A stretch of DNA of 42,480 nucleotides from Omnitrophica bacterium GWA2_41_15 (GCA_919902675.1 CAKKRH010000005.1:1-42480), one strand, 5' to 3'. Positions 26,373 to 42,480 are shown, counted from the stretch's first letter. Translations and numbers: made by a program. Notes: generated from the sequence alone by a model not told the origin.

Positions 26373-26915
26373 TCAATCCTCCAATATCCCGACTATTCTG
26401 GAATAGATTTCTTCTGTACCGTATTTTAAACATAGCGTTCTAAAATTATTGCTTTTAAAATCCATCTTGTTAATCCTGATCAAATTAATTATATCCGGCA
26501 GGTCTTTCATCTCGCGCATCTTTGGATTATATTTAATTGAATGGAGCTTCAGGGCGATCAGATTGTTTAAAGAAGGCACGATGAATCTCTTGTTCGCGAT
26601 ATTTATCTTCTCGCCGTCTTTAATAATTTTACTGAGCGTGTCCTCATCCACAAACATAAAATCAATATCCATAAGCATCAGCTGATTACTTTTAAGCCTT
26701 GTAAAAACTTCCTGGCTGTAATCAGTCTTATAGCCGGCATTTCGCAATAAGGGTAAAATTCTTTCAAAATCTTCTTTGGTTATCAGGAAATCGACATCTA
26801 AAGTCTGGCGGGTAACCTTATAATGATTAACCGCAAATCCCCCTATCAAGACACAAGACACGCCATTTTTATCGGCTATATCGGAAATCAGGTGAAATAT
26901 TGTTTCATCTTTCAT
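26373..26915 (-). CDS. Putative nucleotidyltransferase-fold protein (MNT/AbiEii-like)
   Basis: 180 aa with GG.A......R.T.DVDF in the N-terminal third, as in minimal nucleotidyltransferases. The assignment is tentative. Confidence 0.45.
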   Translation of the reverse strand: MKDETIFHLISDIADKNGVSCVLIGGFAVNHYKVTRQTLDVDFLITKEDFERILPLLRNAGYKTDYSQEVFTRLKSNQLMLMDIDFMFVDEDTLSKIIKDGEKINIANKRFIVPSLNNLIALKLHSIKYNPKMREMKDLPDIINLIRINKMDFKSNNFRTLCLKYGTEEIYSRIVGILED

Positions 26916-27096: not shown

Positions 27097-28767
27097 ATGA
27101 TTTCCCATCTCACCATTAAAAACTTTGGCCTCTTTGACCATATCACGATAGAATTCTCCAAGGGCCTGAATATCTTAACCGGAGAAACCGGCGCGGGGAA
27201 GTCCATCCTCATTGACGGGCTGCGCTATGCCCTGGGCGAACGCCTTGACCCCTCTCAAATTCGCGACCCCCAACAACCTTGCGCGGTAGAAGCTATTTTT
27301 GAAATATCGAAAAATCTGGTAAATGACTATGAAGCCCTATCTGAATTTCTCCCGGAAAAAGAAACCTCTCTGATTATCAACCGCGCCTACCTTCCTGACG
27401 GCCGTAACCGGGCCAGGATAAACGGCCTCTCGGTAACGATTGCGCGGCTCAAAGAATTAGGCAACCACCTCCTTGATTTCCACGGCCCCCACGACCATCA
27501 GATGCTCCTTTCTTCTGACGCCCATTTATCCATGCTTGACAGGCTTAGCAATATTAACGCGCCCAAAAACGAATACAGCCAGATATACCGGAAGTATCTT
27601 GAGCTTGCCGGGGAACAGGAGAAATTAAAGGAATTATCGTCGTCACGAGAAAGAGATATCGAAATCTTAAAACACCAAATCCGGGAACTAGAACAAGTTC
27701 CTCTTGAAGAAGAGAAATATACTGAATTACTGGAAAAACAAAGCAGGCTGAACAACTCCGAAAAACTCTATGAGCGCGCCGGCTGGCTCATCAACGCCAT
27801 TGAAAATGACGAATCCGGGATTTCTCAGGCTATTACCAAAGCCTTTCCCCATATACGGCTTTTAAACAATATTGACCCGGCCACCTCAGTGCTCACTGAA
27901 AACCTAAACCAGATCCAGGAAAAAAGCGATGAAATCTTATCATACCTGAGAGACTACCTGGAAAAACTCTCTTTTGAACCGCGAGAGGCAAATGAAATCA
28001 ATAAGTCTTATGATACCTACATTGAGCTTAAGCGAAAATACGGCCCCAGCTTAGACGAAGTCAGTAAATTTTACCAATCTGCCAAAGAGAAATATGATGC
28101 CCTGATTAATTTTGAGATAAACTCCGCTGAGCTGAATGAAAAAATAAGCTCCCTGCGCAAGGAATTAGCCCGGATCGCCCAAAAAATTACCAAAAAAAGA
28201 AAGGCAGCCGCCGACAGCCTCAAGGAGACAATCGAAAAGGAATTACAAGAGCTAGGGATTACGCACGCGCGGTTTGAATGCGGGATTGAAAAGGCTGAAC
28301 TTAACCCTGACGGGCAGGATAAGGTTATTTTCTATATCAGCCCAAACGCGGGAGAGGATTTAAAACCGTTAGCTGAAATTGTGTCATCGGGCGAGGCGGC
28401 ACGGCTGATGCTGGCCTTAAAGAAGGCCTTGATAAAAGTTGACCCCATACCGGTTTTGATTTTTGATGAGATAGATGCCCAGATAGGCGGGCGCTTAGGC
28501 ACTATTACCGGTAAAAAACTCAAAGAACTCTCTGTTGATAGACAGGTGATTCTCATCACCCACCTGCCCCAAATAGCCTCTTTTGCCGATACTCACTTTA
28601 AGATCTACAAAAAAATAGAAAACAACCGCACTCTAACCGCGATAGAAGAGCTTGACGCAGCCAAAAAGATAAAAGAAATAGCCAAGATGATGAGCGGAGA
28701 AAAGGAAAGCGCTATCGCCATAACCCACGCCCAGGAAATGCTCACCCAGGCAAAAAACCTGCCTTAG
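27097..28767 (+). CDS. recN: DNA repair protein RecN
   Basis: 556 aa with an SMC-like head (NILTGETGAGKSI), a long coiled coil, and C-terminal signature and Walker B (SGGEAARLMLALK, LIFDEIDAQIGG). Confidence 0.95.
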   Translation: MISHLTIKNFGLFDHITIEFSKGLNILTGETGAGKSILIDGLRYALGERLDPSQIRDPQQPCAVEAIFEISKNLVNDYEALSEFLPEKETSLIINRAYLPDGRNRARINGLSVTIARLKELGNHLLDFHGPHDHQMLLSSDAHLSMLDRLSNINAPKNEYSQIYRKYLELAGEQEKLKELSSSRERDIEILKHQIRELEQVPLEEEKYTELLEKQSRLNNSEKLYERAGWLINAIENDESGISQAITKAFPHIRLLNNIDPATSVLTENLNQIQEKSDEILSYLRDYLEKLSFEPREANEINKSYDTYIELKRKYGPSLDEVSKFYQSAKEKYDALINFEINSAELNEKISSLRKELARIAQKITKKRKAAADSLKETIEKELQELGITHARFECGIEKAELNPDGQDKVIFYISPNAGEDLKPLAEIVSSGEAARLMLALKKALIKVDPIPVLIFDEIDAQIGGRLGTITGKKLKELSVDRQVILITHLPQIASFADTHFKIYKKIENNRTLTAIEELDAAKKIKEIAKMMSGEKESAIAITHAQEMLTQAKNLP

Positions 28768-30655: not shown

Positions 30656-30952
30656 TTATGCCGGGCTCAGATAATAATTATCCCTTTGGCCTTTTCTAAA
30701 CAACTGATACCCTAATCCGGCAACCATTGCCGCGTTATCCAAATTTAATCCTTTGGCCGGGAACCAGACCCTGACCCCCGATTTTTTGGCTTCCTCTTCC
30801 ATCCGCAGGCGGAAATAATTATTTGCCGCCACCCCGCCGCCGACAACCAGGGATTTCATCCTTTTCCGCCGGCAGGCCTGGAGAGACTTTCCCACCAACA
30901 CCCTCACCACCGCCTCCTGAAACCCCGCCGCAATATCTTTTCTGAGAAAAGG
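30656..30952 (-). pseudogene. tsaD: 3' fragment of tsaD (tRNA t6A threonylcarbamoyltransferase)
   Basis: Encodes only about the last 95 residues (..RKDIAAGFQEAVVRVLVGKSLQA...LVVGGGVAANNYFR...DNAAMVAGLGY..). The reading frame runs upstream into the MITE copy at 30955 and hits TAA. There is no ATG and no N-terminal ~235 aa. Confidence 0.8.
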
Positions 30953-30954
30953 GG

Positions 30955-31034
30955 GAGAAAAGGGGTCAGAGTGATTTTATTAGCCGTCCACTTTGCCCGT
31001 TTTGTCAAGTTAAATCCCTCTGACCCCTTTTCCC
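30955..31034. mobile_element. 80-bp MITE-like element, copy A
   Basis: Terminal inverted repeats GAGAAAAGGGGTCAGAGTGATTT / AAATC(C)CTCTGACCCCTTTTCCC. Core TATTAGCCGTCCACTTTGCCCGTTTTGTCAAGTT. Confidence 0.8.
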
Positions 31035-31140
31035 CCAATCAAGGACCTTGATACCTCGAAAATTGCGAATTGAAATATGTCGAATTTTCAAATCTAACCT
31101 CACATTAGATTGAACTCCTAACACTAAGTTCTGTTTCTTC

Positions 31141-31177: not shown

Positions 31178-32515
31178 TTATCGTTCTAAGTAAGACTTGC
31201 CAAATTTCTTATGGAACTTAGAAGGAAACTGATCTTCTTTAAGGTAAAATTTTGAGAAACGATCCTCTTTAATCCATGCGTAACTATTAAGCTTATCTTT
31301 CAGTTCTCCATATTTGGAGGGGATAGATAGTTCATCCATAACTCTCTTTACAAATGCTCGATATCTTCTCCCTACAAAATATTGCTTATATAATACGGAG
31401 GGAATAGGAAACCTTATTCCTGCATCATCACCTTCAACCTTAATACCTAAAAGCGTTGTGGGTGGAGTCAAAGTAATAAATCTTTCCTCCATACCTTTCT
31501 CTCGCAGAATATTTTTGCCAATATTTTCGATTTCCCGCACCAGCTTTGACAGTGGCTTATAATCCTCTTTAGTAATAGATTCTTGAATATTCGACAACAT
31601 TTCTCGGAGCTCTACTGTTTCCTTTTCATCCCTTATCTGAAATAGAACATCAAGGAAATCATCGCCACTCGTACTTTCACGTATTAATAACGGCAAAAAT
31701 CCTGGTAAAACGATATTACTAGCAGAATCCACTCCTCCTAATGATTTTAATGAATCACGCAACTTTCCTTGAAATCTGCCAATTCCATTAGTAAATGCCT
31801 CAGCAAAAGCTGGTCCGCTTTTAGCACCAGAATTTATACGATTAAGAAAGTCGTAAGCAAAAAAATCTCTTAATGGATGAGGCATATATGAACACTCATG
31901 TTGAGCAGCGAATACTTGATGCCATATATATTGGTTCCCTATCCATCCCATCACCGACAACATTCGTTGCACATGCTTTGATAGTTTATCCCAATTCACG
32001 CCCGCTCCGTCGCTCCCTAAGATACGTAATTGCTTTCCTAACACTTCATCAGATGGACTAGACAAAATAGCTTCAATTAACGGACTTTCTTTATCAATTC
32101 CGTGAGCACGGAAGACTAAAAAAAACTCAGAAGATGAGTATTCCCAGATAAAATCACTAAATGCATTAACCTGAAGAAAATACTCAGAGAACAAAGATCG
32201 TTCTGAACCTGCGCGAAAAGCATCTGACCATATACTCATCATAGCTGAAGAAACTTGAATTAGATCTTGATCCTCATTAGTATTAAGCGATTCAAAATGA
32301 AAAGCTTTATTTTTTAGTAAGCTTTTCCGTGCAGGAGTAAGTTCTTTCTTATAATTATCGGGAACAATTATCTGTTCATTTAGTAATACGGCTTCACAAA
32401 ATCTAGCTAAACTAACGTGTTCTATATCTAAAAGGGCCGGTTCTTTTAGTAGGGCCTTACCAAGAGTGCGCTGAACACTTGAAATAGTTGAATTATCAAT
32501 TAAAACCCTACTCAT
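31178..32515 (-). CDS. Orphan 445-aa protein, function unknown
   Basis: ATG at 32515 lies 4 nt after AGGAGG (the track start at 32536 is less likely). No signal peptide or TM and no motif I recognise. Very AT-rich. Confidence 0.6.
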   Translation of the reverse strand: MSRVLIDNSTISSVQRTLGKALLKEPALLDIEHVSLARFCEAVLLNEQIIVPDNYKKELTPARKSLLKNKAFHFESLNTNEDQDLIQVSSAMMSIWSDAFRAGSERSLFSEYFLQVNAFSDFIWEYSSSEFFLVFRAHGIDKESPLIEAILSSPSDEVLGKQLRILGSDGAGVNWDKLSKHVQRMLSVMGWIGNQYIWHQVFAAQHECSYMPHPLRDFFAYDFLNRINSGAKSGPAFAEAFTNGIGRFQGKLRDSLKSLGGVDSASNIVLPGFLPLLIRESTSGDDFLDVLFQIRDEKETVELREMLSNIQESITKEDYKPLSKLVREIENIGKNILREKGMEERFITLTPPTTLLGIKVEGDDAGIRFPIPSVLYKQYFVGRRYRAFVKRVMDELSIPSKYGELKDKLNSYAWIKEDRFSKFYLKEDQFPSKFHKKFGKSYLER

Positions 32516-32707
32516 ACAACCTCCTAACAAAACCATATCCCGCTATTTATTCGAAAAACCTAGAAGCGTCCCGTAGTTTTATTCAGGGACAGTTTCCGCT
32601 TTGGCGCTGAGACACTTTCCCGATTAATGCGGAAAACGCCACTTGCGCCAACGGTCAACCGAACGATTCACGAAACAAGCTCCCCACGGAAGGCTTTGGC
32701 TAAAAAT

Positions 32708-32787
32708 GAGAAAAGGGGTCAGAGTGATTTAACTTGACAAAACGGGCAAAGTGGACGGCTAATAAAATCACTCTGACCCCTTTTCCC
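32708..32787. mobile_element. 80-bp MITE-like element, copy B (inverted relative to copy A)
   Basis: Same termini as copy A. The core AACTTGACAAAACGGGCAAAGTGGACGGCTAATA is the exact reverse complement of the copy A core. Confidence 0.8.
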
Positions 32788-32814: not shown

Positions 32815-33480
32815 TTATGACCTTGAGAGTTCGGCGATTGCTTTGACATGCTCCCAAGAAGAAGCTAAGAAAATATTTGCTTGCCCAGCTTCTTTTGACG
32901 GGCTATTTGATAATACCCCGATCAATTTATCAGTTCCCTTAAGTACAACTGGCGAACCGCTAAAACCACCAGCGACCGCACCTGTTATTTGGATATTTTT
33001 TCTTACTCCTGCATGACGTAAAGCAGCACCAATCACTCCCTCTGCATATGTTGGCGCGTGTGTGGAGTTCAGCAACTGTTGACCAAGCGGAAAACCAGCA
33101 TATCCAACGGGTTCACCTACCCCTGGATTGGCATTAACCAAAACCAGGCCGTCTTGTGATTCTTTATCAATAAAATCCTGGGGAACTTCAGCAAGCCGCA
33201 ATATGGATAAATCGTGGTCCAAATCGATACAGCTCACTACTGCCCTGCTATATTTTCCCATATTCCCCACCACCAGCAATCCTATCAATTCAATCGGAGC
33301 TCCTAATAAATTTTCAACAACATGTGCACAAGTAATTAGCACTTTGTAATCTTTTAACCAAAACGCTGTTGCAATTACATCGAGCCCCTCGATAAATGCT
33401 TTTCCTTGTGATGGTTGAAACTTCGGTCTTAAAGTTCCAATGGCACGTACAGCTTTATATACAAGTGGATTATTTTCCAC
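32815..33480 (-). CDS. Cytoplasmic trypsin-fold (S1/Trypsin_2-like) serine protease
   Basis: 221 aa with no signal peptide. Catalytic triad candidates are H53 (TCAHVV), D90 (DHDLSILRL) and S174 (GGFSGSPVV). GTG start overlaps the upstream gene by 11 nt. Confidence 0.8.
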   Translation of the reverse strand: MENNPLVYKAVRAIGTLRPKFQPSQGKAFIEGLDVIATAFWLKDYKVLITCAHVVENLLGAPIELIGLLVVGNMGKYSRAVVSCIDLDHDLSILRLAEVPQDFIDKESQDGLVLVNANPGVGEPVGYAGFPLGQQLLNSTHAPTYAEGVIGAALRHAGVRKNIQITGAVAGGFSGSPVVLKGTDKLIGVLSNSPSKEAGQANIFLASSWEHVKAIAELSRS

Positions 33481-33739
33481 ATGACACCTTACCTTCTGCT
33501 ACTGCGATTCTATTGAGATGGAAGTGAACGACGAGGTTTACTGCGGATCGCTTTCCCTCAGTGCTACTCATTTTGTATTTGTTGAGCTTACGAATACATT
33601 CATCTAAAGCCAGGTTTAATTTCAGCGCTTCCTCAAACTTTATTTTCAAGTTTAGCACCTTGGTATCTCCACTCACCTTGGACTTTTCAGGGCTATATTC
33701 TGATATTTCACAAGCCCCAAAACTAAAAGTCTTCTCCAT
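33470..33739 (-). CDS. 89-aa protein, function unknown, translationally coupled to the protease
   Basis: ATG at 33739 lies 5 nt after AGGAGG and 10 nt after the methyltransferase stop codon. No recognisable motif. Confidence 0.55.
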   Translation of the reverse strand: MEKTFSFGACEISEYSPEKSKVSGDTKVLNLKIKFEEALKLNLALDECIRKLNKYKMSSTEGKRSAVNLVVHFHLNRIAVAEGKVSCGK

Positions 33740-33749
33740 ATTTACCTCC

Positions 33750-36700
33750 TTAAGTTGCCGATGCTATCTTTTTATAAGCATCAAGTGTGGCGTCTTTAAC
33801 ATTTTGCGGAACGATCAGAAAAGTGGCTAAAATATGGGCAAACTCATCCTCGGATACCTCATATAGATGCGCTATTATCCCATCGAGTTCCGCTCTAATC
33901 TTGATGCGCTCTTCTGAATTGGTTACGCCGTCTTTATGACTTTTTAGTCCCGCTACTTTCCCTAACTCATTAAACTCGGGTTCAGTGCATACCAACTTAG
34001 CAACCAGCTTGGCGATTTTTATAAATGTTTTATCCTTATCGGTTAAGCGCGGGATAGGCAGTTGATAAATAAAAAACATATTGATATTCGTGGTTACTTT
34101 TTGCCTCAGAAACCAATCGATAACAAAAGAGTTAAATAACCCTGTGCAATAAAGCTGAGTTAATTCATCAAGGTTATCGCACATATTAAGGGAATTACCT
34201 GTAAAAGAGGGCGGGATAATCGTACACACCAAAGTACGTTCATTCGTATTGGAAGCTATTGATCGATAGGCAAGGCGGTATTTCTGATACCCCAGCAACT
34301 GTCCTTTGTCAGGCGTCCTACCCAAAAGAGCTGCTCTGCCCTTTTTCTCATTCACCCAGAAGCGCGGGACTGAAAGATTAGACTGAAACTGCCACATCAT
34401 TTTTCCTTCAAGCAACTGAATATTCCCGTTCCCTTGAGATGTCTTAAATAAACTACTGTCATTCGTCATATCAAACTCTCTGGTAACACGAAAACTCCAA
34501 CCATTCTGTATTTCGTCGCCCAATAAAGGGAATTGAAGCATTTTTTCAGCGATTTCTACATCTGCCGATTCCTTAAACTCCATTACAGAAAGCGAATCAG
34601 GAGAAAGACGCCGTACCAGATTTATATTAATTTTAACTGACCCTTCCTGGGGAAAACCATCAAGCTCCTCTACATCATGACGCATAAATGCCGCAGGGAA
34701 AGAATCGGTTTTTAGGCCTGTTTCAAAAGTCAATACAACAAACTTGAAGCTCCTGTGTACCCCTTCAAATATCTCCTTCCGATTTTCGAAACAAAATAAG
34801 CCAGTCAACTGTGTTTCCGCGAATAACATCTCCCGTAGTTGCTTTGACCCCAGATCGGTATAAATCCCGCTCGGAATAACGATTCCGCAGTAACCGCCCT
34901 TACGAAGCAGATTAAAGCACTGCTCAGTGAAAAGCTTATAGAGATTAATATCTGTTCCTACCTTCTTACCGTCTACAATGCTAATTTGATTTTTATACTG
35001 AGGGGCGGAACGAAAATAAGCACTAACATGCGGGTATTTGTTGAGATACTCAAACCATGCTTTTCTTATATCATGATCCTTCAAAAGTTTTTCCTGCTCT
35101 TCCTCAAAGTCCTTAATAGTCATTTTCTTCTTGCTTACTAAATCAGAATACTGCTCAAAAAACTCCTTGGCATTGGGCTTAAATATCTCCCACGGCGGAT
35201 TGGTAATTATCGCATCAAAACCACCACCTTGACCTATAATTTCATCAAACTCGAAACCCCAATGAAAAGGTTTTAACGCCTGTATGTCCTCTATACGCAG
35301 AGGACGCTTAATTGTTTTTCCTTCGCACTTTTCTTTTTCATCCCATGCTGCCTGCTCATATTTAATCTCTAAATGATGGAACTCATCGAGAATAATTGAA
35401 TTAAGCGTCTCAACCGCGGATTGTTTCTGCGCAGTAATCTGATCACGCAATGACCGTAAATCATCCGCATAATCTGTAGCATGACGGTATAGCTTAATCA
35501 ATCTATTCTTTTCTTGAAGTATACGGTTATATTTCTGTTGGCTACGTTCAGCAAGAAATGCAGCTTGAGCATCTTTCTTGCCTGGCGATTCTTTTACATC
35601 AAACAACAAACTCATCTGCCCAGAATCTTGGTCTTTCTTTTTTGTCTGTTGCTTTTTAGCAGGATCTGCCTGATTTCTCTCAAAAGCGGAAGCATCCACA
35701 CGAATCAAGCCAATTAGAGAATTACCTGCCTGAATGTTAAAATCGATATTGGGAAGCGGCTCAAGATCTTCTACAGAATTCGCCGCTGCTACCAAAGCCA
35801 AGAATAAGCGTAATTTGGCTATTTCCACGGCCTCATCCATAATATCAACACCAAAAAGGTTATCGGTGATAATCGCTTTCTTGATATAGTAACCCGAGCT
35901 GGGATGACTGTCTTCAATGTCTTTAAGCCACTTGGTGAGGTTTTTGTCTCCTAAGAACTTAATCTTGCCTATCAACGCAGAATAAACGCCAATAAGAGAC
36001 TTCATAGCCGCTACCAGGAAAGCGCCAGATCCACAGGCGGGATCCAAAATACTCACTTCAGGCAGGATATCAAATAGAAGCCGCTTACAGAGGTGAGTAT
36101 CTAAATTAAGTAAGAGATCTCCGATGGTTTCAAACTGTCGACTTGCCACCGCTCCTGGAATCCCTGGAGTGTTCACCCGATCAAGCACGAGATGCTGAAT
36201 AGTCTTTTCACATAGGTATTCAGTAATCTCGGGGCGGGTATAATAGGCGCCGAATGCCTTCTGATTGATGTATTTTTCAAATATGTAACCCAGAACATCT
36301 GGATTGATTTCATTATCCTCTCCACCTGGGGTATCATTAAGATTCCAAGAATATCGTTGGAATAGATTCAAAACATTCTCAAAAGCCTTATCAGGGATAT
36401 GGATTTTAGGATATTTAAGTTCAACGATGTGAGGCAAAAATAACCCGCCGTTTAGATACTTGATTTTACCAAGTAATTTGAGTGCCTGAGAGGATCTCTG
36501 GTTTTCTGGCTTGGCAAATCCTTCGAAGAATAAAAGTATGAGAAAATCGCTAAAAAATAGGTTTTTCCCTCTCACCTTGCTTTCTGCAAGCTTAGTCTGC
36601 AAATAATCCAGATTCCCGTTATCAAGGAAGCGCTTCTTCTGCAGAAAATAGATAAACATTAAGCGATTTAATAAAACCGAGGCATACCAATGACGCTCTC

Positions 36701-37277
36701 GATCATCATCAATACCTTCAATAAGCTCCAGAAATGCCAGATGTTGATCTTGAAACTCTCCATAGAATCTCTTAGTGACACGTTCAACATCAAGAGCGTT
36801 CTTTAGACGACGCGCCACTTCAACTACAGAGATATCTCCAGTCTTTTCAAAATCACTAATATCGAAAACGATTCCACTTAACTTGCTAATAAAAAGATCG
36901 CCTGGTTGGCCTTTGAAGTAAGAATGGTCTCTGGGGTACGACTTCCCATCCTCTCTTTTAACCCAATACCAGATGCTTTGTGTTTTATCTTTGTCGATAA
37001 AAATGAGGAGGTTTTCGTGGTAAGTTTTTGATAACTCTTTGTGGATGGCCTTGCGGGTTTTGGCGTCGGGAATCTTGCCTTCAGAAGTACTAATCTCTAA
37101 TGCGACCACTCCTGCTAACTCTGCGATCTGACGGAAGGAAAACTTTATATCAAATATCTCTTTATTTTCAGTTTTTTTACTACCTGGCTTTGACCAACCA
37201 AGCTCTTCAATGAAAAGCTTCTCAAAGTCGAACTTTTGCAGCAGGTCTTGGGTACGGGTGATGTTTAGTTTACTCAT
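33750..37277 (-). CDS. Eco57I/PglX-like gamma-class N6-adenine DNA methyltransferase (1175 aa)
   Basis: Motifs GAYYTRPE (aa 343-350), LDPACGSGAF (aa 411-420), GNSLIG and FDAIITNPPW (NPPW at aa 693-696). A charged insert lies at about aa 530-650. Large N- and C-terminal domains of unknown role. Confidence 0.9.
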   Translation of the reverse strand: MSKLNITRTQDLLQKFDFEKLFIEELGWSKPGSKKTENKEIFDIKFSFRQIAELAGVVALEISTSEGKIPDAKTRKAIHKELSKTYHENLLIFIDKDKTQSIWYWVKREDGKSYPRDHSYFKGQPGDLFISKLSGIVFDISDFEKTGDISVVEVARRLKNALDVERVTKRFYGEFQDQHLAFLELIEGIDDDRERHWYASVLLNRLMFIYFLQKKRFLDNGNLDYLQTKLAESKVRGKNLFFSDFLILLFFEGFAKPENQRSSQALKLLGKIKYLNGGLFLPHIVELKYPKIHIPDKAFENVLNLFQRYSWNLNDTPGGEDNEINPDVLGYIFEKYINQKAFGAYYTRPEITEYLCEKTIQHLVLDRVNTPGIPGAVASRQFETIGDLLLNLDTHLCKRLLFDILPEVSILDPACGSGAFLVAAMKSLIGVYSALIGKIKFLGDKNLTKWLKDIEDSHPSSGYYIKKAIITDNLFGVDIMDEAVEIAKLRLFLALVAAANSVEDLEPLPNIDFNIQAGNSLIGLIRVDASAFERNQADPAKKQQTKKKDQDSGQMSLLFDVKESPGKKDAQAAFLAERSQQKYNRILQEKNRLIKLYRHATDYADDLRSLRDQITAQKQSAVETLNSIILDEFHHLEIKYEQAAWDEKEKCEGKTIKRPLRIEDIQALKPFHWGFEFDEIIGQGGGFDAIITNPPWEIFKPNAKEFFEQYSDLVSKKKMTIKDFEEEQEKLLKDHDIRKAWFEYLNKYPHVSAYFRSAPQYKNQISIVDGKKVGTDINLYKLFTEQCFNLLRKGGYCGIVIPSGIYTDLGSKQLREMLFAETQLTGLFCFENRKEIFEGVHRSFKFVVLTFETGLKTDSFPAAFMRHDVEELDGFPQEGSVKININLVRRLSPDSLSVMEFKESADVEIAEKMLQFPLLGDEIQNGWSFRVTREFDMTNDSSLFKTSQGNGNIQLLEGKMMWQFQSNLSVPRFWVNEKKGRAALLGRTPDKGQLLGYQKYRLAYRSIASNTNERTLVCTIIPPSFTGNSLNMCDNLDELTQLYCTGLFNSFVIDWFLRQKVTTNINMFFIYQLPIPRLTDKDKTFIKIAKLVAKLVCTEPEFNELGKVAGLKSHKDGVTNSEERIKIRAELDGIIAHLYEVSEDEFAHILATFLIVPQNVKDATLDAYKKIASAT

Positions 37278-37287
37278 TCATCTATAA

Positions 37288-40200
37288 TCACTTTTTAGAT
37301 AGCCCCATGGAACAAATAATGTGCGGATCTGCTTCTTCATCTTCCTCGTGAATCTGGCAAAGTCGGCCTTCATCACGCAAAGCAATAACGAGTTGAGCTA
37401 ACGCCTCATCTGAAATACCACTACGTAGCTGACGGTTAAGAGTATCCGTCGCCGACTGCCTTAGCGGATATCGATAAATCTCATCGATTGATTTAATCAG
37501 TTCATCTGTTTCAAATAATGTTCCTCGTACTGTTTCGACATACCTTTTTAATCGCTCGTAAGTACGAAATCTGGCTCCTGAAGGCCGCCCCAGCTGACCG
37601 CCAGTTGACTTCTCCTCCTCCGCGATAATTCTTATTGCCTTTTCAACAAGCTCGTGATGTCTGTCTAAGCGCTGGACGGCTTCGGTATTAGCAGAACATT
37701 CTGCCATTTTTAATACCACAAGCTGAGATTCTGTGACACTTTCTCCACTTTGGTTAATCCAAGCAAGAGCATCGTTATCTTCAGGGGTGCGCATGTAAAC
37801 AAGCACGCCTTCTGGCTTCTTTTCAGAAGCTTCGAACTTCTTAGTACTATATACAACTGGGGGCAACTCAGGGATAATCTTCTGCAATTCGGGATCTTGC
37901 GTTGTTGCATTTTTCCAGATCTGATACGCGTATGATGCTAAATCGACTTCTGTATCATCTTCCTCATCGAGAATACCTGCTTTTTCATGATATAAATCCA
38001 ATACTCTCTGATCATCACGGTCATCTTCAAAAAATTGCTCATCTGTACCAACAACCTCTGCGTTCTCTTTAAGGCGCTGTCGAACGCGGCTTCTTAGACG
38101 CAAAATCCGCTCAACCCCGTCTGCTGGTAAGAAAGAATAGCAAAGGATGTTTTCTGAATGTTGCCCAATTCGGTCTACACGACCTACTCGCTGAATTAGC
38201 CGTATAATTGCCCAAGGCAAGTCGTAGTTTACTACAATAGCGCAGTCCTGGAGATTTTGCCCTTCGCTCAATACGTCAGTAGCAAGCAAGACCCGCAATT
38301 CATCCTTGGGATCGACTTCAGTCCTTTTTTCGTTACTTACAGGACTGAACCTCCAAGCCATCTCCGTCGGGTTTGAAGAATCACCTGTCACGCCGACCAT
38401 CCTCGTGATACATTGTACTTTTAATTGCTCTTCCAGATAATGCACTGTATCCGCGAACTGAGTAAAAACTAGAACTTTTTCTTTGCCGTGTTTCTTAGCA
38501 ATCAAAGATATTAGCTCTTTCAGTTTCGCATCCTGAGAAGGATTCCAATCAGGGCACCTCTGCAGCAATTTGAATAACTCGTTGGCATCTTTTTTCAAAT
38601 CATCAGCCAGATCTTTAATAAATAAATCTGGCCTAAGCCACTTAAATCGTTTCTTGTGCTTTGCAAAATGCTCCTCGTAGATAATCTTGGCGCGGGCTTT
38701 ATAATCGCTTTCAGTTTTAAGAGAACCTGAATTGGTATTCGAGCTGTTTTCCTCATTCTCCCCTTCCTCAAAGAGCTCTACCGCAGCTCCAATATCTTCA
38801 TCAGCGTCACTAAATCTTGAATCTAAAAACTCTGCCGCCTGGCTACCAATAGGAAGCGGCTGCCCTGTTTCAATTGCGTGTAAAAAGATATAGTTACGCA
38901 GGATATGTCTTTCAATGGATTGAATAAATACCTGACCGCTACTTTCTAGACGCTTAAAAATATTCGTCCTACAAAAGCCCATAAGCCGCTTACCAGCGCG
39001 CGATAAATCCTGCAGCACTTTAGCTTCTATCTGAGTCGGCGGAGTATGCGGAGATGGTTCGATAAAGTTACCGAGCCCGTAACGAGGTAAGCTCAAAGCA
39101 TTGATGATATTCACCACGCCTTGTTCATATAGCTTGGCATATTGATCATCGGGATTACGCTCATCAATGGGGATCGGTACTGTTTTAGGAATACGATTCG
39201 GGAAATATGAACGCCGGCCATCGGGAAAAGTTAGATACTTGCGTTTCGTTTTTTCATCGGTCTTGGCATAATTTGTCATTATAAAGCTTCTTGTTCGACG
39301 AACCAAATATAAACGCATTAAATCGCGCCAATCATCAGCATATATGCTTTTTTCGAACGCAGCCAGCGACCTAACCGCGCACTGGTGCTTTCTAATAAAC
39401 TCAGTTTCACCCATCTCTTTGATTAGTTGCTCTGGTCTAAGTCCCAAATCTTTATCTTCTGGTATAAAAAGACGGAGCTGACTCGAGAGATCAAGATACG
39501 TCTTGTTGTAGGGTGTCGCGGAAAGCAAAATAACTTTACTGTCGTTCGCTTGAATATAGTCCTGAATTACTTTGAACCGCTTGCCTTCACGGTTTCTCAG
39601 ATTATGACTTTCATCGATCAATACGAGTCGGTATCTTTTAAGCTCAGGGAGCTCACGAATCGCCTTGCTGATTGGAAGAACCTTAGCGTGCATTCGATAC
39701 TTATACTGATAATCCTCCCACATTTTTACTAAGTTCTTTGGACAAAGAATTAGCGTCTCGAGCCCGTGATCATCTTCAAAGATCCTGGCTACCGCTGTCG
39801 CCATTAATGTCTTGCCTAAACCTACGACATCACCTATAAGCACGCCACCTCGTTTATTAAGATGGTGCGCGGAAATTTTGACTGCTGCTGTTTGAAAATC
39901 AAAAAGTGTATTGCCGAACTCTCTTGGTATCCTAAACTCAGAAAGCCCGGCTCGTGCCTCCTGAGAAAGATGGTAGGCCATCTTAATATAGATATAATAC
40001 GGAGGTATTAAATCTTCACGCGCCCAGCTTTCACCGATTATATCGACCAATTCCTGAGAGATATCAAAAGACCATTTATCATTCCACCGATCCTTGAACC
40101 ACCCTGCCAACTTCTGACAAGCGTCATAGTCTAAAACGTCTATATTTAACTCTCCTTGCTGGGAGAGACCTGACAAGGTCAAGTTACTACTCCCCAAATA

Positions 40201-40668
40201 ACCAACTATGGGATTAATAGGATCTTTTCTGAAAAGAAGATAGAGTTTGGCGTGAAGAGGATGCCGCACAAACAGCTTTACCTGAACTTTTTTGGCTTTA
40301 ATTTGAGCGGACAACCGCCTTAATCCAGCCTCGTCTTCATTGGTAGGAACACCCAAAGTCAATTGGCGCCGGAACTCCTCCGCAAGCTGTTTTTTTAATT
40401 TATTGGCAGTAACAAGATCAATTTCGCCATTTTTCTTAATTAACCCAAGTGCCTCTCGTAATGATTCTTCAGGAAGACGCTGCATCCCTACTAATAAACG
40501 GCAACAATTTTCTTCTCCACCAGACCATTGGTCAACGTAATTATTGAGCTGTTTCCATCCTCTTAGATTAAAATATCCTACACAAAAATCCGCGCGCTCA
40601 GACAGGTGGAGAGTGTCTTGTAAAGCAAGAAGCAATTTCTGGTCAATGTTATCAAATATCCGGGGCAT
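37288..40668 (-). CDS. PLD-family nuclease domain fused to SNF2-family ATPase (1126 aa)
   Basis: Single HKD motif HAKLYLL...GSSNLT (H139, codon 40254-40252). SNF2/SF2 motifs GDVVGLGKT, LIDESHNLRN, LLSATP, LSEGQNLQD and QRVGRVDRIGQ. Confidence 0.9.
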   Translation of the reverse strand: MPRIFDNIDQKLLLALQDTLHLSERADFCVGYFNLRGWKQLNNYVDQWSGGEENCCRLLVGMQRLPEESLREALGLIKKNGEIDLVTANKLKKQLAEEFRRQLTLGVPTNEDEAGLRRLSAQIKAKKVQVKLFVRHPLHAKLYLLFRKDPINPIVGYLGSSNLTLSGLSQQGELNIDVLDYDACQKLAGWFKDRWNDKWSFDISQELVDIIGESWAREDLIPPYYIYIKMAYHLSQEARAGLSEFRIPREFGNTLFDFQTAAVKISAHHLNKRGGVLIGDVVGLGKTLMATAVARIFEDDHGLETLILCPKNLVKMWEDYQYKYRMHAKVLPISKAIRELPELKRYRLVLIDESHNLRNREGKRFKVIQDYIQANDSKVILLSATPYNKTYLDLSSQLRLFIPEDKDLGLRPEQLIKEMGETEFIRKHQCAVRSLAAFEKSIYADDWRDLMRLYLVRRTRSFIMTNYAKTDEKTKRKYLTFPDGRRSYFPNRIPKTVPIPIDERNPDDQYAKLYEQGVVNIINALSLPRYGLGNFIEPSPHTPPTQIEAKVLQDLSRAGKRLMGFCRTNIFKRLESSGQVFIQSIERHILRNYIFLHAIETGQPLPIGSQAAEFLDSRFSDADEDIGAAVELFEEGENEENSSNTNSGSLKTESDYKARAKIIYEEHFAKHKKRFKWLRPDLFIKDLADDLKKDANELFKLLQRCPDWNPSQDAKLKELISLIAKKHGKEKVLVFTQFADTVHYLEEQLKVQCITRMVGVTGDSSNPTEMAWRFSPVSNEKRTEVDPKDELRVLLATDVLSEGQNLQDCAIVVNYDLPWAIIRLIQRVGRVDRIGQHSENILCYSFLPADGVERILRLRSRVRQRLKENAEVVGTDEQFFEDDRDDQRVLDLYHEKAGILDEEDDTEVDLASYAYQIWKNATTQDPELQKIIPELPPVVYSTKKFEASEKKPEGVLVYMRTPEDNDALAWINQSGESVTESQLVVLKMAECSANTEAVQRLDRHHELVEKAIRIIAEEEKSTGGQLGRPSGARFRTYERLKRYVETVRGTLFETDELIKSIDEIYRYPLRQSATDTLNRQLRSGISDEALAQLVIALRDEGRLCQIHEEDEEADPHIICSMGLSKK

Positions 40669-40669
40669 A

Positions 40670-40873
40670 TTATTCCTCTAAAAAATAAGCTGGCTCTTTT
40701 TTAAGCGCCTTTGCTATTTTCACCAGCGTCTCAATCGAAGGCATTGAAAGACCGGTTTCGTATCGGGAAATGCTCTTTTGTTTTGCGCCTATTTTGTTCG
40801 CCAAGTCAGTTTGATTCAAATCAAGTTCTATCCTGGCTATTTTAATCTTTTTACCTAACTTTTTTGCGTCCAT
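40670..40873 (-). CDS. XRE-family helix-turn-helix regulator (C-protein-like)
   Basis: 67 aa with an HTH_3-type sequence (LNQTDLANKIGAKQKSISRYETG). The stop codon lies 1 nt before the ATG of the PLD-SNF2 gene. Confidence 0.85.
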   Translation of the reverse strand: MDAKKLGKKIKIARIELDLNQTDLANKIGAKQKSISRYETGLSMPSIETLVKIAKALKKEPAYFLEE

Positions 40874-40892: not shown

Positions 40893-40920
40893 TTGACAAG
40901 CCCTAAAAATAGGGTATACT
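40893..40920 (+). promoter_or_regulatory. Plus-strand near-consensus promoter with palindromic spacer
   Basis: TTGACA (40893-40898), 16 nt, TATACT (40915-40920). The spacer contains the perfect palindrome CCCTAAAAATAGGG (40901-40914). Confidence 0.5.
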
Positions 40921-40936: not shown

Positions 40937-40978
40937 GGGCAATCACTGCGGATGCGGGGGTTGCCCAATTTGTTTTTT
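40937..40978 (+). terminator. Plus-strand terminator-like hairpin with U-tract
   Basis: GGGCAA-N18-TTGCCC followed by AATTTGTTTTTT. It overlaps the last codons of the DUF3800 gene on the other strand. Confidence 0.4.
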
Positions 40979-41728
40979 AGGCAATATAATCAGTCCGTAA
41001 CCACGATATTTCCCGCAGGAATGTTTACGAAATTTACTCTTAATCACGTCATAAGCGATATAAAAGTTCCTCTTATTTAAATATCTCCTGCCTATAGGCG
41101 TTATAACAGAGTCCACTAATTGCAAGCCGGGAATATTCTCATCTTTCTTTCTAATACGGAAGTCAGTTATACTTTCTGCTATATCAATGGGCCTAAGGAA
41201 CCTTGTGCCGCTGATTTTCAGGTCTAAAAAGGCTAAGCTTAGCTGATTATCCAGCTGCTGTCCCCTGCTCTCCGCAATAATAACGCCTTTCGCTTTCTTT
41301 TCTTTCAAGAACATAACAAATCTCTCCACAATTACTTCCAGGGAAAGAAGATACGGGTCAATGGCATTCTTGTAATGCTTAATATGCTCATTCTTATCTA
41401 TAATACAAGCGACTAAATCAAATTCAGCGTCTTTGATGATTTTATTTAGGCCGGCGTAAAACTCGCCTCTTAAATCCTTATCACGCAACTTTTCATAACC
41501 CTTGCCATCTCTGGTATACTCAGCCAAATGCAGGACAATTTCTTTATTCCCAAAGAAGTCTTCTTTAAATTTATTAAGAGTAGCCGTTAAAACTTTCTCT
41601 TCATACTGAAAATCAATAATACATCCAGCCAAAACAAAAATAGGATACTCAGGGTCAATCATGATTAGATCGTGATCGCCTGATTCATCCAGAAAAAGCA
41701 CCGAATTTCCCTTCTTGGAATCATTCAT
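40943..41728 (-). CDS. DUF3800-family protein
   Basis: 261 aa with an N-terminal FLDESGD and a C-terminal GLQLVDSV, both typical of DUF3800 (recalled from memory). Confidence 0.7.
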   Translation of the reverse strand: MNDSKKGNSVLFLDESGDHDLIMIDPEYPIFVLAGCIIDFQYEEKVLTATLNKFKEDFFGNKEIVLHLAEYTRDGKGYEKLRDKDLRGEFYAGLNKIIKDAEFDLVACIIDKNEHIKHYKNAIDPYLLSLEVIVERFVMFLKEKKAKGVIIAESRGQQLDNQLSLAFLDLKISGTRFLRPIDIAESITDFRIRKKDENIPGLQLVDSVITPIGRRYLNKRNFYIAYDVIKSKFRKHSCGKYRGYGLIILPKKQIGQPPHPQ

Positions 41729-41852: not shown

Positions 41853-42089
41853 ATGGATACGACTGAGATTGCTTCCCCGCCACAAATCTTGGCGGGTAGC
41901 AATGGCAAACAAGAGAAACTAAATTGGCAAGACTCTTTGCCTATCCAGCGCTTACTGGATGCAATCTCTTCTATTATAGCCCAGGAATACATTACGATAG
42001 CCAAACAGAATCCGACAGTATTTGCAGAGATTGCTTCACCCCCTTCGGGGGTTCGCAATGACTACCACGGAATGGAGGATAAAAAATGA
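41853..42089 (+). CDS. 78-aa ORF upstream of and overlapping the recombinase start (ATGA)
   Basis: 4-nt overlap with the recombinase ATG. Weak RBS. Contains two related hairpin repeats, so coding status is uncertain. Confidence 0.3.
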   Translation: MDTTEIASPPQILAGSNGKQEKLNWQDSLPIQRLLDAISSIIAQEYITIAKQNPTVFAEIASPPSGVRNDYHGMEDKK

Positions 42090-42480
42090 AAGCCGCAATA
42101 TACGCAAGATATTCTTCTGAGAATCAAAGCGAAAAGAGTATTGATGATCAGATACGAGTATGCAAAAACTACTGCAAAGAGCATGAAATTGCTGTGAGCA
42201 ATGAGCATATCTATATTGATGAGGCAATCTCCGGCTCTCTTATAAATCGTCCCGGACTCCAGGCGCTGGATAAGGCTGCTGAAGACAGAGAATTTGAGGC
42301 AGTGGTAGTAGACGACCTCTCCCGCCTTTCGCGCAGTAACCACCAAATGCTTACCTTAGTGCTCAAGTTTAATTATTTACAAGTTACAAGTTACGATCAT
42401 CTCGGTAGCGGATGGGATATGCACAGATGACGAAAACTCAAAGTTAGGAATTCAGATACGGGGGTTAGTAAACGAATTAT
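42086..42480 (+). pseudogene. Serine recombinase (resolvase-type N-terminal domain), frameshifted; runs off the window
   Basis: MKAAIYARYSSENQSEKSIDDQ... (catalytic Ser region), RPGLQAL and VVVDDLSRLSRS. The frame breaks at a 7-bp tandem duplication TTACAAG TTACAAG (42377-42390). Removing one copy gives ..LQVTIISVADGICTDDENSKLGIQIRGLVNEL, open to the window edge. Confidence 0.8.

Follow-up and report, generated by a model that had tools for sequence, protein, structure and literature searches.

Do the five adjacent genes at positions 32815 to 40873 of a contig from Omnitrophica bacterium GWA2_41_15 (GCA_919902675.1, CAKKRH010000005.1:1-42480; this whole stretch of 42,480 nucleotides is called the window below) form one dedicated defence system, or are several restriction-linked elements combined here in one operon? 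The genes, all on the minus strand, encode a small regulator, a fusion of a phospholipase D (PLD)-family HKD domain with an SNF2 ATPase, an adenine methyltransferase (MTase), a protein of 89 amino acids (p89), and a trypsin-fold serine protease. The first of these views had been taken in a first-pass annotation, in which the locus was put forward as a candidate composite defence system of five genes; its architecture would be new if methylation-based self/non-self recognition were linked to a proteolytic effector or switch, and a small protein was noted as translationally coupled to the protease. The comparisons reported here favour the second: the operon is a new combination of a predicted restriction–modification (RM) class with two restriction-linked accessory families. 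The relation between RM systems and the protease is real and apparently undescribed, and the novelty lies in this RM-linked protease family. On balance, the locus is probably an RM-like core on a mobile island, accompanied by its regulator and by two added restriction-linked genes, with the protease as a latent module of the PrrC kind.

Organisation of the operon

The five open reading frames (ORFs) run from 40873 down to 32815, with the same boundaries as in the first-pass annotation. In the order of transcription, they and the element that follows them are:

40670–40873, minus strand: XRE/Cro-C1 helix-turn-helix (HTH) regulator, 67 amino acids (HTH_3)
37288–40668, minus strand: HKD (PLD-family)–SNF2 fusion, 1126 amino acids (PLDc_2, SNF2-rel_dom, Helicase_C)
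33750–37277, minus strand: gamma-class N6-adenine MTase, 1175 amino acids (Eco57I, MmeI_Mtase)
33470–33739, minus strand: p89, 89 amino acids (no family match)
32815–33480, minus strand: trypsin-fold serine protease, 221 amino acids, GTG start (Trypsin_2)
32710–32785, minus strand: palindromic hairpin element of 76 nucleotides (inverted repeat I4 and RNA fold)

Successive genes are separated, in the 5′ to 3′ direction along the operon, by 1, 10, and 10 nucleotides (nt), and the last two (p89 and protease) overlap by 11 nt. Strong Shine–Dalgarno sequences precede p89 (AAGGAGG), the XRE gene (GGAGG), and the PLD–SNF2 gene. The palindrome, located 30 nt 3′ of the protease stop codon, folds into a hairpin with a 23-bp stem (−39.1 kcal/mol, z = −6.9), which is likely to mark the 3′ end of the transcription unit. 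With these spacings, ribosome-binding sites, and downstream hairpin, the locus is a compact five-gene unit with a defined 3′ end, and the earlier description of the genes as a single transcription unit could be retained. Scans with promoter and terminator consensus sequences performed no better than on shuffled sequences. All five ORFs are genuine genes, given that p89 and the protease have families of their own (81 and 193 homologues, respectively) and that the identical operon was found in 14 metagenome contigs from several samples, including contigs named Hain_H52.

The HKD–SNF2 protein and the methyltransferase

A single N-terminal HKD motif and a complete SNF2 ATPase are joined on one polypeptide in the 1126-residue protein. 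The Pfam domains PLDc_2 (residues 59–195), RE_NgoFVII (a PLD domain), SNF2-rel_dom, and Helicase_C (residues 715–835) were detected, together with the motifs H139-A-K141, GSSN (159–162), GLGKT (283–287), DESH (352–355), and QRVGRVDR (826–833). H139, K141, and GSSN are invariant across seven homologues, and the Walker A and DESH motifs are likewise invariant in homologues. The best PADLOC model is PDLC01075 (‘HKD+Snf2’, 7e-51); the DrmD, BrxH, and DpdE models rank below it and cover the helicase C-terminal region only. The fusion recognised in the first-pass annotation was thus confirmed by domains, model, and intact invariant motifs, and the protein is presumed to be the restriction or translocase subunit.

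The 1175-residue protein was matched in Pfam by Eco57I (7e-22) and MmeI_Mtase and carries the motifs DPACGSG (412–418) and NPPW (693–696). Its best PADLOC models are the REBASE-derived REase_MTase_IIG models (4e-123, best stretch residues 3–367), and TIGR02987 (Alw26I/Eco31I family) matches residues 647–1170. The first 366 or so residues are 41–61% identical among homologues, and 41–49% in those whose C-terminal parts have diverged to about 30%; this is the pattern expected if a constant docking or catalytic part is followed by a variable part for target recognition.

A nuclease was sought in the MTase at several levels. No nuclease family of Pfam was found in it, and neither the MTase sequence nor a profile built from 41 N-terminal sequences gave a match to the PDB. 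An AlphaFold2 (AF2) model of residues 1–400 had a mean predicted local distance difference test (pLDDT) score of 76, with about 90 in the β-rich N-terminal domain; in a Foldseek search of the PDB with this model, no match had an E value under 0.01, and none was to a nuclease or an HsdM-like fold. The conserved N-terminal stretch reads F-x-D95-x5-Q-x-W instead of D…(D/E)xK. The earlier assignment as an Eco57I-like adenine MTase lacking a detectable nuclease therefore holds, and the HKD domain of the partner is the sole credible nuclease of the operon. A type IIG enzyme has nuclease, MTase, and target-recognition domains on a single chain; the type IIG models of PADLOC match the MTase, no nuclease domain was detected on its chain in the searches above, and a type IIG assignment is uncertain.

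Distribution of the core pair

More than 538 relatives of the PLD–SNF2 protein were returned by a metagenome scan. The 80 best loci (58–72% identity) were analysed along with reference loci, which gave 85 loci in all; an MTase gene lies directly 3′ of the PLD–SNF2 gene in at least 54 of the 85, and most of the other contigs end too early. In the Omnitrophica operon, the MTase with its family-specific N-terminal domain likewise follows immediately downstream, after the 10-nt gap. Full-length PLD–SNF2 homologues (tblastn, 52–61% identity), each with a large MTase just downstream, are also encoded on the plasmids pANACY.05 (Anabaena cylindrica), pNPUN01 (Nostoc punctiforme), pSYSX (Synechocystis PCC 6803), and pPRO1 (Pelobacter propionicus). 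The pairs of HKD–SNF2 and Eco57I-type proteins on pSYSX (WP_011153866, annotated as ‘helicase-related protein’, and Slr6050), pANACY.05, and pPRO1 consist of the same two proteins in the same order (PLD–SNF2 52–72%, MTase N-terminus 41–61% identical); the catalytic motifs are intact and a small upstream regulator is frequent. To this pair, the present locus adds XRE, p89, and the protease.

HKD domains fused to SWI2/SNF2 ATPases in bacterial RM systems had already been noted by comparative genomics (PMC3417536). Slr6050 has been tentatively equated with M.Ssp6803IV (GAm6AGGC), and its knockout would not segregate (PMC6105098), as expected if the neighbouring HKD–SNF2 protein restricts unmethylated DNA. 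No biochemical study of the HKD–SNF2/MTase class was found in the literature, where the record consists of the Slr6050 methylome and knockout and of comparative-genomic mentions. Judged by sequence, the core pair belongs to an RM class that had been predicted before and is widespread on plasmids and in metagenomes, and the claim of a new architecture had to be given up for it.

What follows the MTase gene varies between loci. Other members of the class have, in this slot, an AAA_21 (OLD-like) ATPase with DUF4276 (Anabaena), a Fic protein with a winged helix, GmrSD, a DprA-like protein, DUF2513, or nothing. None of the 80 metagenome PLD–SNF2 loci contained a homologue of p89 or of the protease when six-frame translations were searched with profiles, and an 88-residue gene product encoded after the Pelobacter MTase was rejected as a p89 homologue on comparison. 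Neither a dedicated five-gene composite system nor the wiring of its methylation module to a proteolytic effector through p89 is supported by these results: p89 and the protease were found together in no other lineage, none of the close PLD–SNF2 loci carries either, and unrelated genes fill the same slot in other loci.

Further observations were made on these loci. The DprA-like genes (DNA_processg_A, 170–250 amino acids) stand just 3′ of the pair in eight metagenome loci (L064, 7962–8603; L102, 9181–9942; L111, 17131–17763; and five others) and are the commonest accessory genes of the class among the sampled loci. On pSYSX (L059, 11487–12120), VapC and a small upstream partner (VapBC-type) are inserted between the PLD–SNF2 gene and slr6050, and a ubiquitin-like E1/E2/multiubiquitin cluster and an HTH plus ImmA/IrrE pair are located just downstream. 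In L144 (2818–9731 of a 444-kb contig), the PLD–SNF2 and MTase genes are split into several ORFs, whereas both genes are intact in five other contigs with the same DNA; the broken ORFs are probably due to an assembly consensus error, not to pseudogenisation.

The protease family

The protease was assigned to Trypsin_2 by Pfam (1e-10, 42.9 bits against a cut-off of 27.6). Its catalytic residues occur in the order His-Asp-Ser with a GxSGxP motif, and the triad H53/D90/S174 is invariant in 44 homologues. The 193 homologues collected (55–89% identity) are all about 220–245 residues long, carry no additional domains, and originate from Patescibacteria, Gammaproteobacteria, Planctomycetota, Verrucomicrobiota, and Acidobacteriota; no member was found in a scan of IMG/VR.

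Linkage to RM genes was counted in 39 species-representative genomes, namely those in which a member of the family is encoded. The protease is RM-linked in 18 of them, mostly in the order hsdM-hsdS-protease-hsdR: an HsdS-type gene directly precedes the protease gene in 12 genomes, hsdR directly follows it at a spacing of 0–10 nt in eight, and a full type I hsdR is present within the protease cluster in 14 of the 18. The type I subunits of L007 and L032 were confirmed by Pfam (HsdM_N/N6_Mtase, Methylase_S, and HSDR_N/SWI2_SNF2/T1R_D3). Split type IIG/IIB-like operons (HSDR_N_2-N6_Mtase-Eco57I / protease / Methylase_S) were found at three genome loci (including L010 and L015) and in the metagenome loci L001 and L063. 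All of the closest relatives of the Omnitrophica protease on long contigs are RM-embedded (L061, 78%; L001, 76–77%; L063, 70% identity), that of L061 being located directly after hsdR. In a neighbour-joining tree, RM-embedded proteases appear on all major branches and the protease of this locus groups among them; the solitary proteases make up one candidate phyla radiation (CPR) clade and one Verrucomicrobia/Acidobacteria clade. The hallmark of a PrrC-type gene, namely recurrence across taxa as a gene embedded in, and co-oriented with, RM operons, was accordingly found in 18 of the 39 genomes and in L001, L061, and L063. The connection between RM and protease made in the first-pass annotation survives in this form, as a strong link of the protease family to several types of RM operon, though not as a dedicated five-gene system. 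Literature searches for an RM-embedded trypsin-like protease returned nothing relevant.

In two of the 18 RM-linked genomes, a degraded protease copy was found beside a type I system. At the loci L040 (941–1615) and L041 (10001–10675), a homologous stretch (tblastn, 42% identity) lacks an intact ORF; it is flanked on one side by a fragment resembling hsdS and on the other by a complete type I system, and is probably a decaying copy.

LexA-like repressors are encoded directly upstream of the protease-bearing split IIG/IIB-like operons (L001, 4846–5484; L063, 347–1000; L010, 214–861; L015, 364–966); those of L001 and L063 were identified by Pfam (LexA_DNA_bind and Peptidase_S24), those of L010 and L015 by clustering. 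The type I HsdR of L061 (6528–9986) gave a weak Peptidase_S24 match. Taken together, these repressors and the HsdR match point to SOS-type autoproteolytic control of these RM operons. A YgjP-like (M48/WLM-type) metallopeptidase is encoded after hsdR in L007 (15007–15732, Pfam), with counterparts found by clustering in L008 and L031; in all three cases, the operon is of type I and includes the serine protease gene.

The p89 family

Searches of two databases with p89 yielded 81 homologues and 375 representative clusters, respectively, almost all of 85–110 residues; there was no match in Pfam, NCBIfam, or PADLOC, and no homologue in the IMG/VR scan. The protein is small, α/β, and basic; counting its residues gives a net charge of about +5. 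No fold match to its AF2 model (pLDDT 90) was found in the PDB or in BFVD. Apparent fusion proteins in the representative search contained no informative domains and are probably chimeric gene calls.

The genomic positions of the homologues vary. In two other lineages (L053/54 and L152), p89 lies directly upstream of a PLD–SNF2 gene, overlapping it or 35 nt away. In L052, it follows a TIR_2 gene and adjoins an IIB-like RM system and SIR2; in L150, it is part of a type I operon, after hsdR and between the gene for a 215-residue protein without family match and AbiGi; in L055, it stands alone among housekeeping genes. The gene for the 215-residue protein of L150 was rejected as a diverged protease after a search with the protease-profile hidden Markov model (HMM); by eye, its product looks GGCT/AIG2-like. 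As judged from these neighbourhoods, p89 is an independent restriction-linked family, whose members are possibly small DNA-binding regulators or effector partners.

Regulator and upstream region

The XRE protein was matched by HTH_3 in Pfam (4e-16) and by capH (8e-12), RmrA N-terminal, and, weakly, ‘Control_protein’ models in PADLOC. It is the likely controller of the operon, since its stop codon is located 1 nt ahead of the PLD–SNF2 start. The palindrome CCCTAnnnnTAGGG is found just upstream of the XRE gene, together with the GGAGG Shine–Dalgarno sequence. The palindrome CCCTAtttTTAGGG (40900–40916, minus strand), which precedes the XRE start codon by some 30 nt, is regarded as a possible operator site of the regulator. 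The corresponding upstream slot of other PLD–SNF2 operons is occupied by small ORFs that look by eye like HTH or ribbon-helix-helix (RHH) proteins (RHH-like in pSYSX), or by p89.

Comparison with named systems

Among the window proteins that were scanned with Pfam and PADLOC, neither DrmA/DrmB, PglZ, BrxC/DUF499, nor BrxL was detected, so that the absence of the DISARM and BREX core genes, as reported in the first-pass annotation, was reproduced; all of the negative assignments in this section refer to these scanned proteins. Its further statement, that no named system covers the two 3′ genes for p89 and the protease, proved correct as well. No NCBIfam equivalog model reaches its cut-off for the core proteins.

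DISARM class 1 has the vocabulary of SNF2, PLD, and N6-adenine MTase in common with the locus, and partial HMM matches to DrmD and DrmMI were obtained; the PLD protein DrmC is separate there, whereas the PLD domain is fused to SNF2 here. The NCBIfam DrmD model (NF038317) scored 126.6 bits against a cut-off of 610, in the helicase C-terminal region only. DISARM class 1 was rejected because DrmA and DrmB (DUF1998) were not found. BREX types 1–6 were rejected because PglZ, BrxC, BrxA/B, and BrxL were not found; PglX models gave 31–48 bits against cut-offs of 400–900, the figure of 48 standing against a cut-off of 500. BREX and the related BR systems also contain a large PglX-like gamma-class MTase and an SNF2-type helicase, which is sometimes fused to a nuclease (PMC12839542). 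The BR helicases, however, bear TUDOR domains and C-terminal PD-(D/E)XK nucleases, as opposed to the N-terminal HKD domain found here, and the BR systems are built around a DUF499 (BrxC-like) ATPase (PMC12839542). MANTIS is likewise presented as DUF499-centred in the title and abstract of its description. As no DUF499 ATPase was found, BR, Hma, and MANTIS were rejected.

Type III and type ISP RM systems resemble the core pair in that an ATP-dependent motor of superfamily 2 (SF2) and a nuclease act with an adenine MTase, and in that the MTase reads a short asymmetric site and methylates one strand, with which the tentative GAAGGC assignment of Slr6050 agrees. Type III Res is a Rad25-like helicase with a PD-(D/E)XK nuclease and Mod is a beta-class MTase, whereas an SNF2 motor with an N-terminal HKD domain and a gamma-class MTase of the Eco57I/MmeI type are encoded here. 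Type ISP enzymes are fusions, in contrast to the separate proteins of this locus.

With regard to the protease, PrrC is the closest parallel. The gene order of the type IC system EcoprrI is prrA-B-C-D; the accessory effector gene is embedded in, and co-transcribed with, the RM operon, like the protease gene, and it occupies the same hsdS-X-hsdR slot as the protease in type I loci. The RM enzyme keeps the embedded PrrC latent, and inhibition of the enzyme is the trigger (PMC12707154). PrrC differs in being an ABC-ATPase/HEPN RNase, whereas a trypsin-fold protease is found here, in several RM classes and also in solitary positions.

Protease effectors are also known from other defence systems (reverse transcriptase (RT)-protease UG/Abi class XI, Lamassu LmuA variants, PDC-M35A, and Lit), and weak PADLOC matches of the protease to RT-Protease_XI (6.5e-13), PDC-M35A (7e-07), and LmuA (1e-04) were obtained. 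Those effectors work with a sensor (RT, SMC-like, or other) as a fusion or as a separate partner; the protease described here is a bare 221-residue domain with recurrent RM partners.

Proposed mechanism and alternative explanations

The preferred reading, an RM-like core with two added modules, would operate as follows. For the core, which is supported by homology and synteny, XRE would be the repressor that controls the two genes. The MTase would read a short asymmetric site by means of its variable C-terminal part and methylate the host DNA accordingly, and the HKD–SNF2 protein would act as an ATP-driven translocase–nuclease that cuts unmethylated DNA; it would presumably dimerise to form one HKD active site, like other single-HKD nucleases. 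Comparative context shows the p89 and protease genes to be separate restriction-linked modules, inserted into the variable position that follows the MTase gene. By analogy with PrrC, the protease would most likely be a latent second-line effector or regulator tied to the RM system, co-expressed with it and inactive in normal cells; its release would follow when the RM complex is inhibited or can no longer cope, and a conserved cellular or phage protein would then be cleaved. p89, translationally coupled to the protease, may be a small DNA-binding or inhibitory partner.

The chief argument for obligate coupling to RM is the repeated, tightly spaced arrangement hsdS-protease-hsdR, and the chief arguments against it are the solitary copies and the heterogeneity of the partners. 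Several observations weigh on the opposing side. Roughly one in two protease homologues stands alone, beside housekeeping genes (gyrA, a GH31 glycosidase gene, dnaG) or other defence-type genes, so that the protease needs no RM partner and need not be toxic. Its RM partners are of different kinds (type I, motor-less split IIG/IIB-like, and HKD–SNF2), and it is not evident how one physical mode of docking would suit them all. Within its 221 residues, no sensor domain could be recognised. In the loci examined, p89 and the protease occur together in no other lineage, and their overlap here is perhaps a chance juxtaposition. That the N-terminal 370 or so residues of the MTase dock the HKD–SNF2 partner is a guess, as the AF2/Foldseek comparison yielded no fold match.

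A more specific form of the preferred reading is advanced tentatively. The protease would represent a new class of RM guardian, a latent serine protease that docks on the MTase/specificity core shared by type I, IIG/IIB-like, and HKD–SNF2 systems, is freed by phage anti-restriction proteins or DNA mimics, and cleaves a highly conserved cellular target to abort the infection, with p89 as a translationally coupled inhibitor or adaptor in this lineage. Such a target would explain the identity of 55–89% across phyla.

Alternatively, protease and p89 might be autonomous genes, either stand-alone defence genes or selfish ones, that were inserted preferentially into RM operons and defence islands for co-transfer and co-expression and are not functionally coupled to them. 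The solitary occurrence of the protease in about half of the genomes, and one solitary p89, speak for this explanation, as do the absence of both from the 80 PLD–SNF2 loci and the unrelated defence genes accepted by the slot 3′ of the MTase. The only other co-occurrence of the protease with a PLD–SNF2/MTase pair (L019) fits it too: the genes are divergent and 2.5 kb apart, the PLD–SNF2 protein is about 30% identical, and the protease belongs to a clade of otherwise solitary copies, so that the co-occurrence may well be a coincidence. What such hitch-hiking accounts for poorly is the hsdS-protease-hsdR order, with spacings of 0–10 nt, at independent loci in Gammaproteobacteria, Saccharibacteria, Microgenomates, and Planctomycetia, which is tighter and more position-specific than random clustering on islands, and the spread of RM-embedded proteases across the whole tree. 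It is accordingly considered possible but doubtful.

An unlikely explanation is that the protease serves restriction alleviation or establishment and, like ClpXP, degrades or trims a restriction subunit or RM regulator while the chromosome is under-methylated, so that the operon can enter naive hosts safely. Degradation of the translocating HsdR by ClpXP is an established route in types IA and IB (PMC12707154). The location of the operon on an integrative island, the reduced proteostasis genomes of the many CPR carriers, and the LexA-like S24 autoproteolytic repressors of related loci, along with the weak S24 match in one HsdR, are in keeping with such a role. On the other hand, the restriction partners have no common fold apart from the SF2 motor, which is itself missing from the split IIG/IIB-like ones; the protease gene is the last of the operon, where an establishment factor would be expected early; and the solitary proteases are left unexplained.

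The least well supported proposal, a CapH/CapP-like switch in which the protease cleaves the XRE repressor upon a damage or infection signal and thereby induces the operon, draws on the capH match of XRE and the presence of the protease gene in the same operon, but was rejected as highly improbable, since HTH_3 domains in general give capH-type matches, the protease is without an XRE homologue at its side in all other loci examined, and the serine protease of the Trypsin_2 type belongs to the wrong class. CapP of the CBASS pair CapH/CapP is an ImmA/IrrE-type metallopeptidase, not a serine protease.

Genomic setting

The following features adjoin the operon:

42086–42430, plus strand: N-terminal resolvase domain of a serine recombinase (Resolvase, 2.5e-20)
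40943–41728, minus strand: DUF3800 gene (Pfam, 6e-16)
31178–32536, minus strand: 452-residue protein without family match, between two 76-nt palindrome copies
30656–30940, minus strand: 3′ fragment of tsaD (Pfam TsaD, model positions 202–263 of 264, the last 60 or so residues)

The operon is located on an island with the tsaD 3′ fragment on one side and the serine recombinase (42086 onward) on the other, in a region with a lower GC content than the rest of the window. From this layout, the island would seem to be integrative and to have entered at the 3′ end of tsaD, with the gene fragment as its probable edge. In all sister contigs (compare L145, 1–1395), the recombinase is called as two ORFs (a 114-residue Resolvase protein and a 446-residue Recombinase plus Zn_ribbon_recom protein).

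The DUF3800 gene lies 69 nt upstream of the XRE gene on the same strand. It is regarded as a neighbouring island gene, and it is uncertain whether it is part of the operon unit. In the Magasanikbacteria locus L001–L004, too, a DUF3800 gene is found near the protease gene, at a distance of about 2.4 kb.

A second copy of the 76-nt palindrome (30957–31032, or 30953–31036 at its widest; 99% identical) is located just before the tsaD fragment. The two copies, with arms of 21–25 nt and a 34-nt spacer, bracket the gene for the 452-residue protein, the first standing just after the protease stop codon; no further copy was found in the window or in unrelated loci. No match of the 452-residue protein was found in Pfam, PADLOC, or NCBIfam, nor a homologue in the fetched loci outside its own lineage. 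The gene may be a separate or mobile cassette, or the palindromes may be duplicated terminators.

Two further genes were noted a few kilobases from the island: one for an AbiEii/NTP_transf_5-type nucleotidyltransferase of 180 residues (26373–26915), and a divergent one for a 556-residue SMC_N/AAA_23 ATPase (27097–28767), which is RecN-like and has PADLOC matches of the mad3/LmuB type.

Significance

Environmental bacteria and cyanobacterial plasmids carry the core pair in abundance, and the present locus, whose regulator is intact, offers a good starting point for work on the class. If the protease is only a hitch-hiker, the locus is an ordinary defence-island mosaic. The protease can be tested easily, as it is encoded by one small gene and its active site offers an obvious mutant; should it prove to be coupled in function to its RM partners, the few known RM guardian mechanisms (PrrC and PARIS) would be joined by a proteolytic one.

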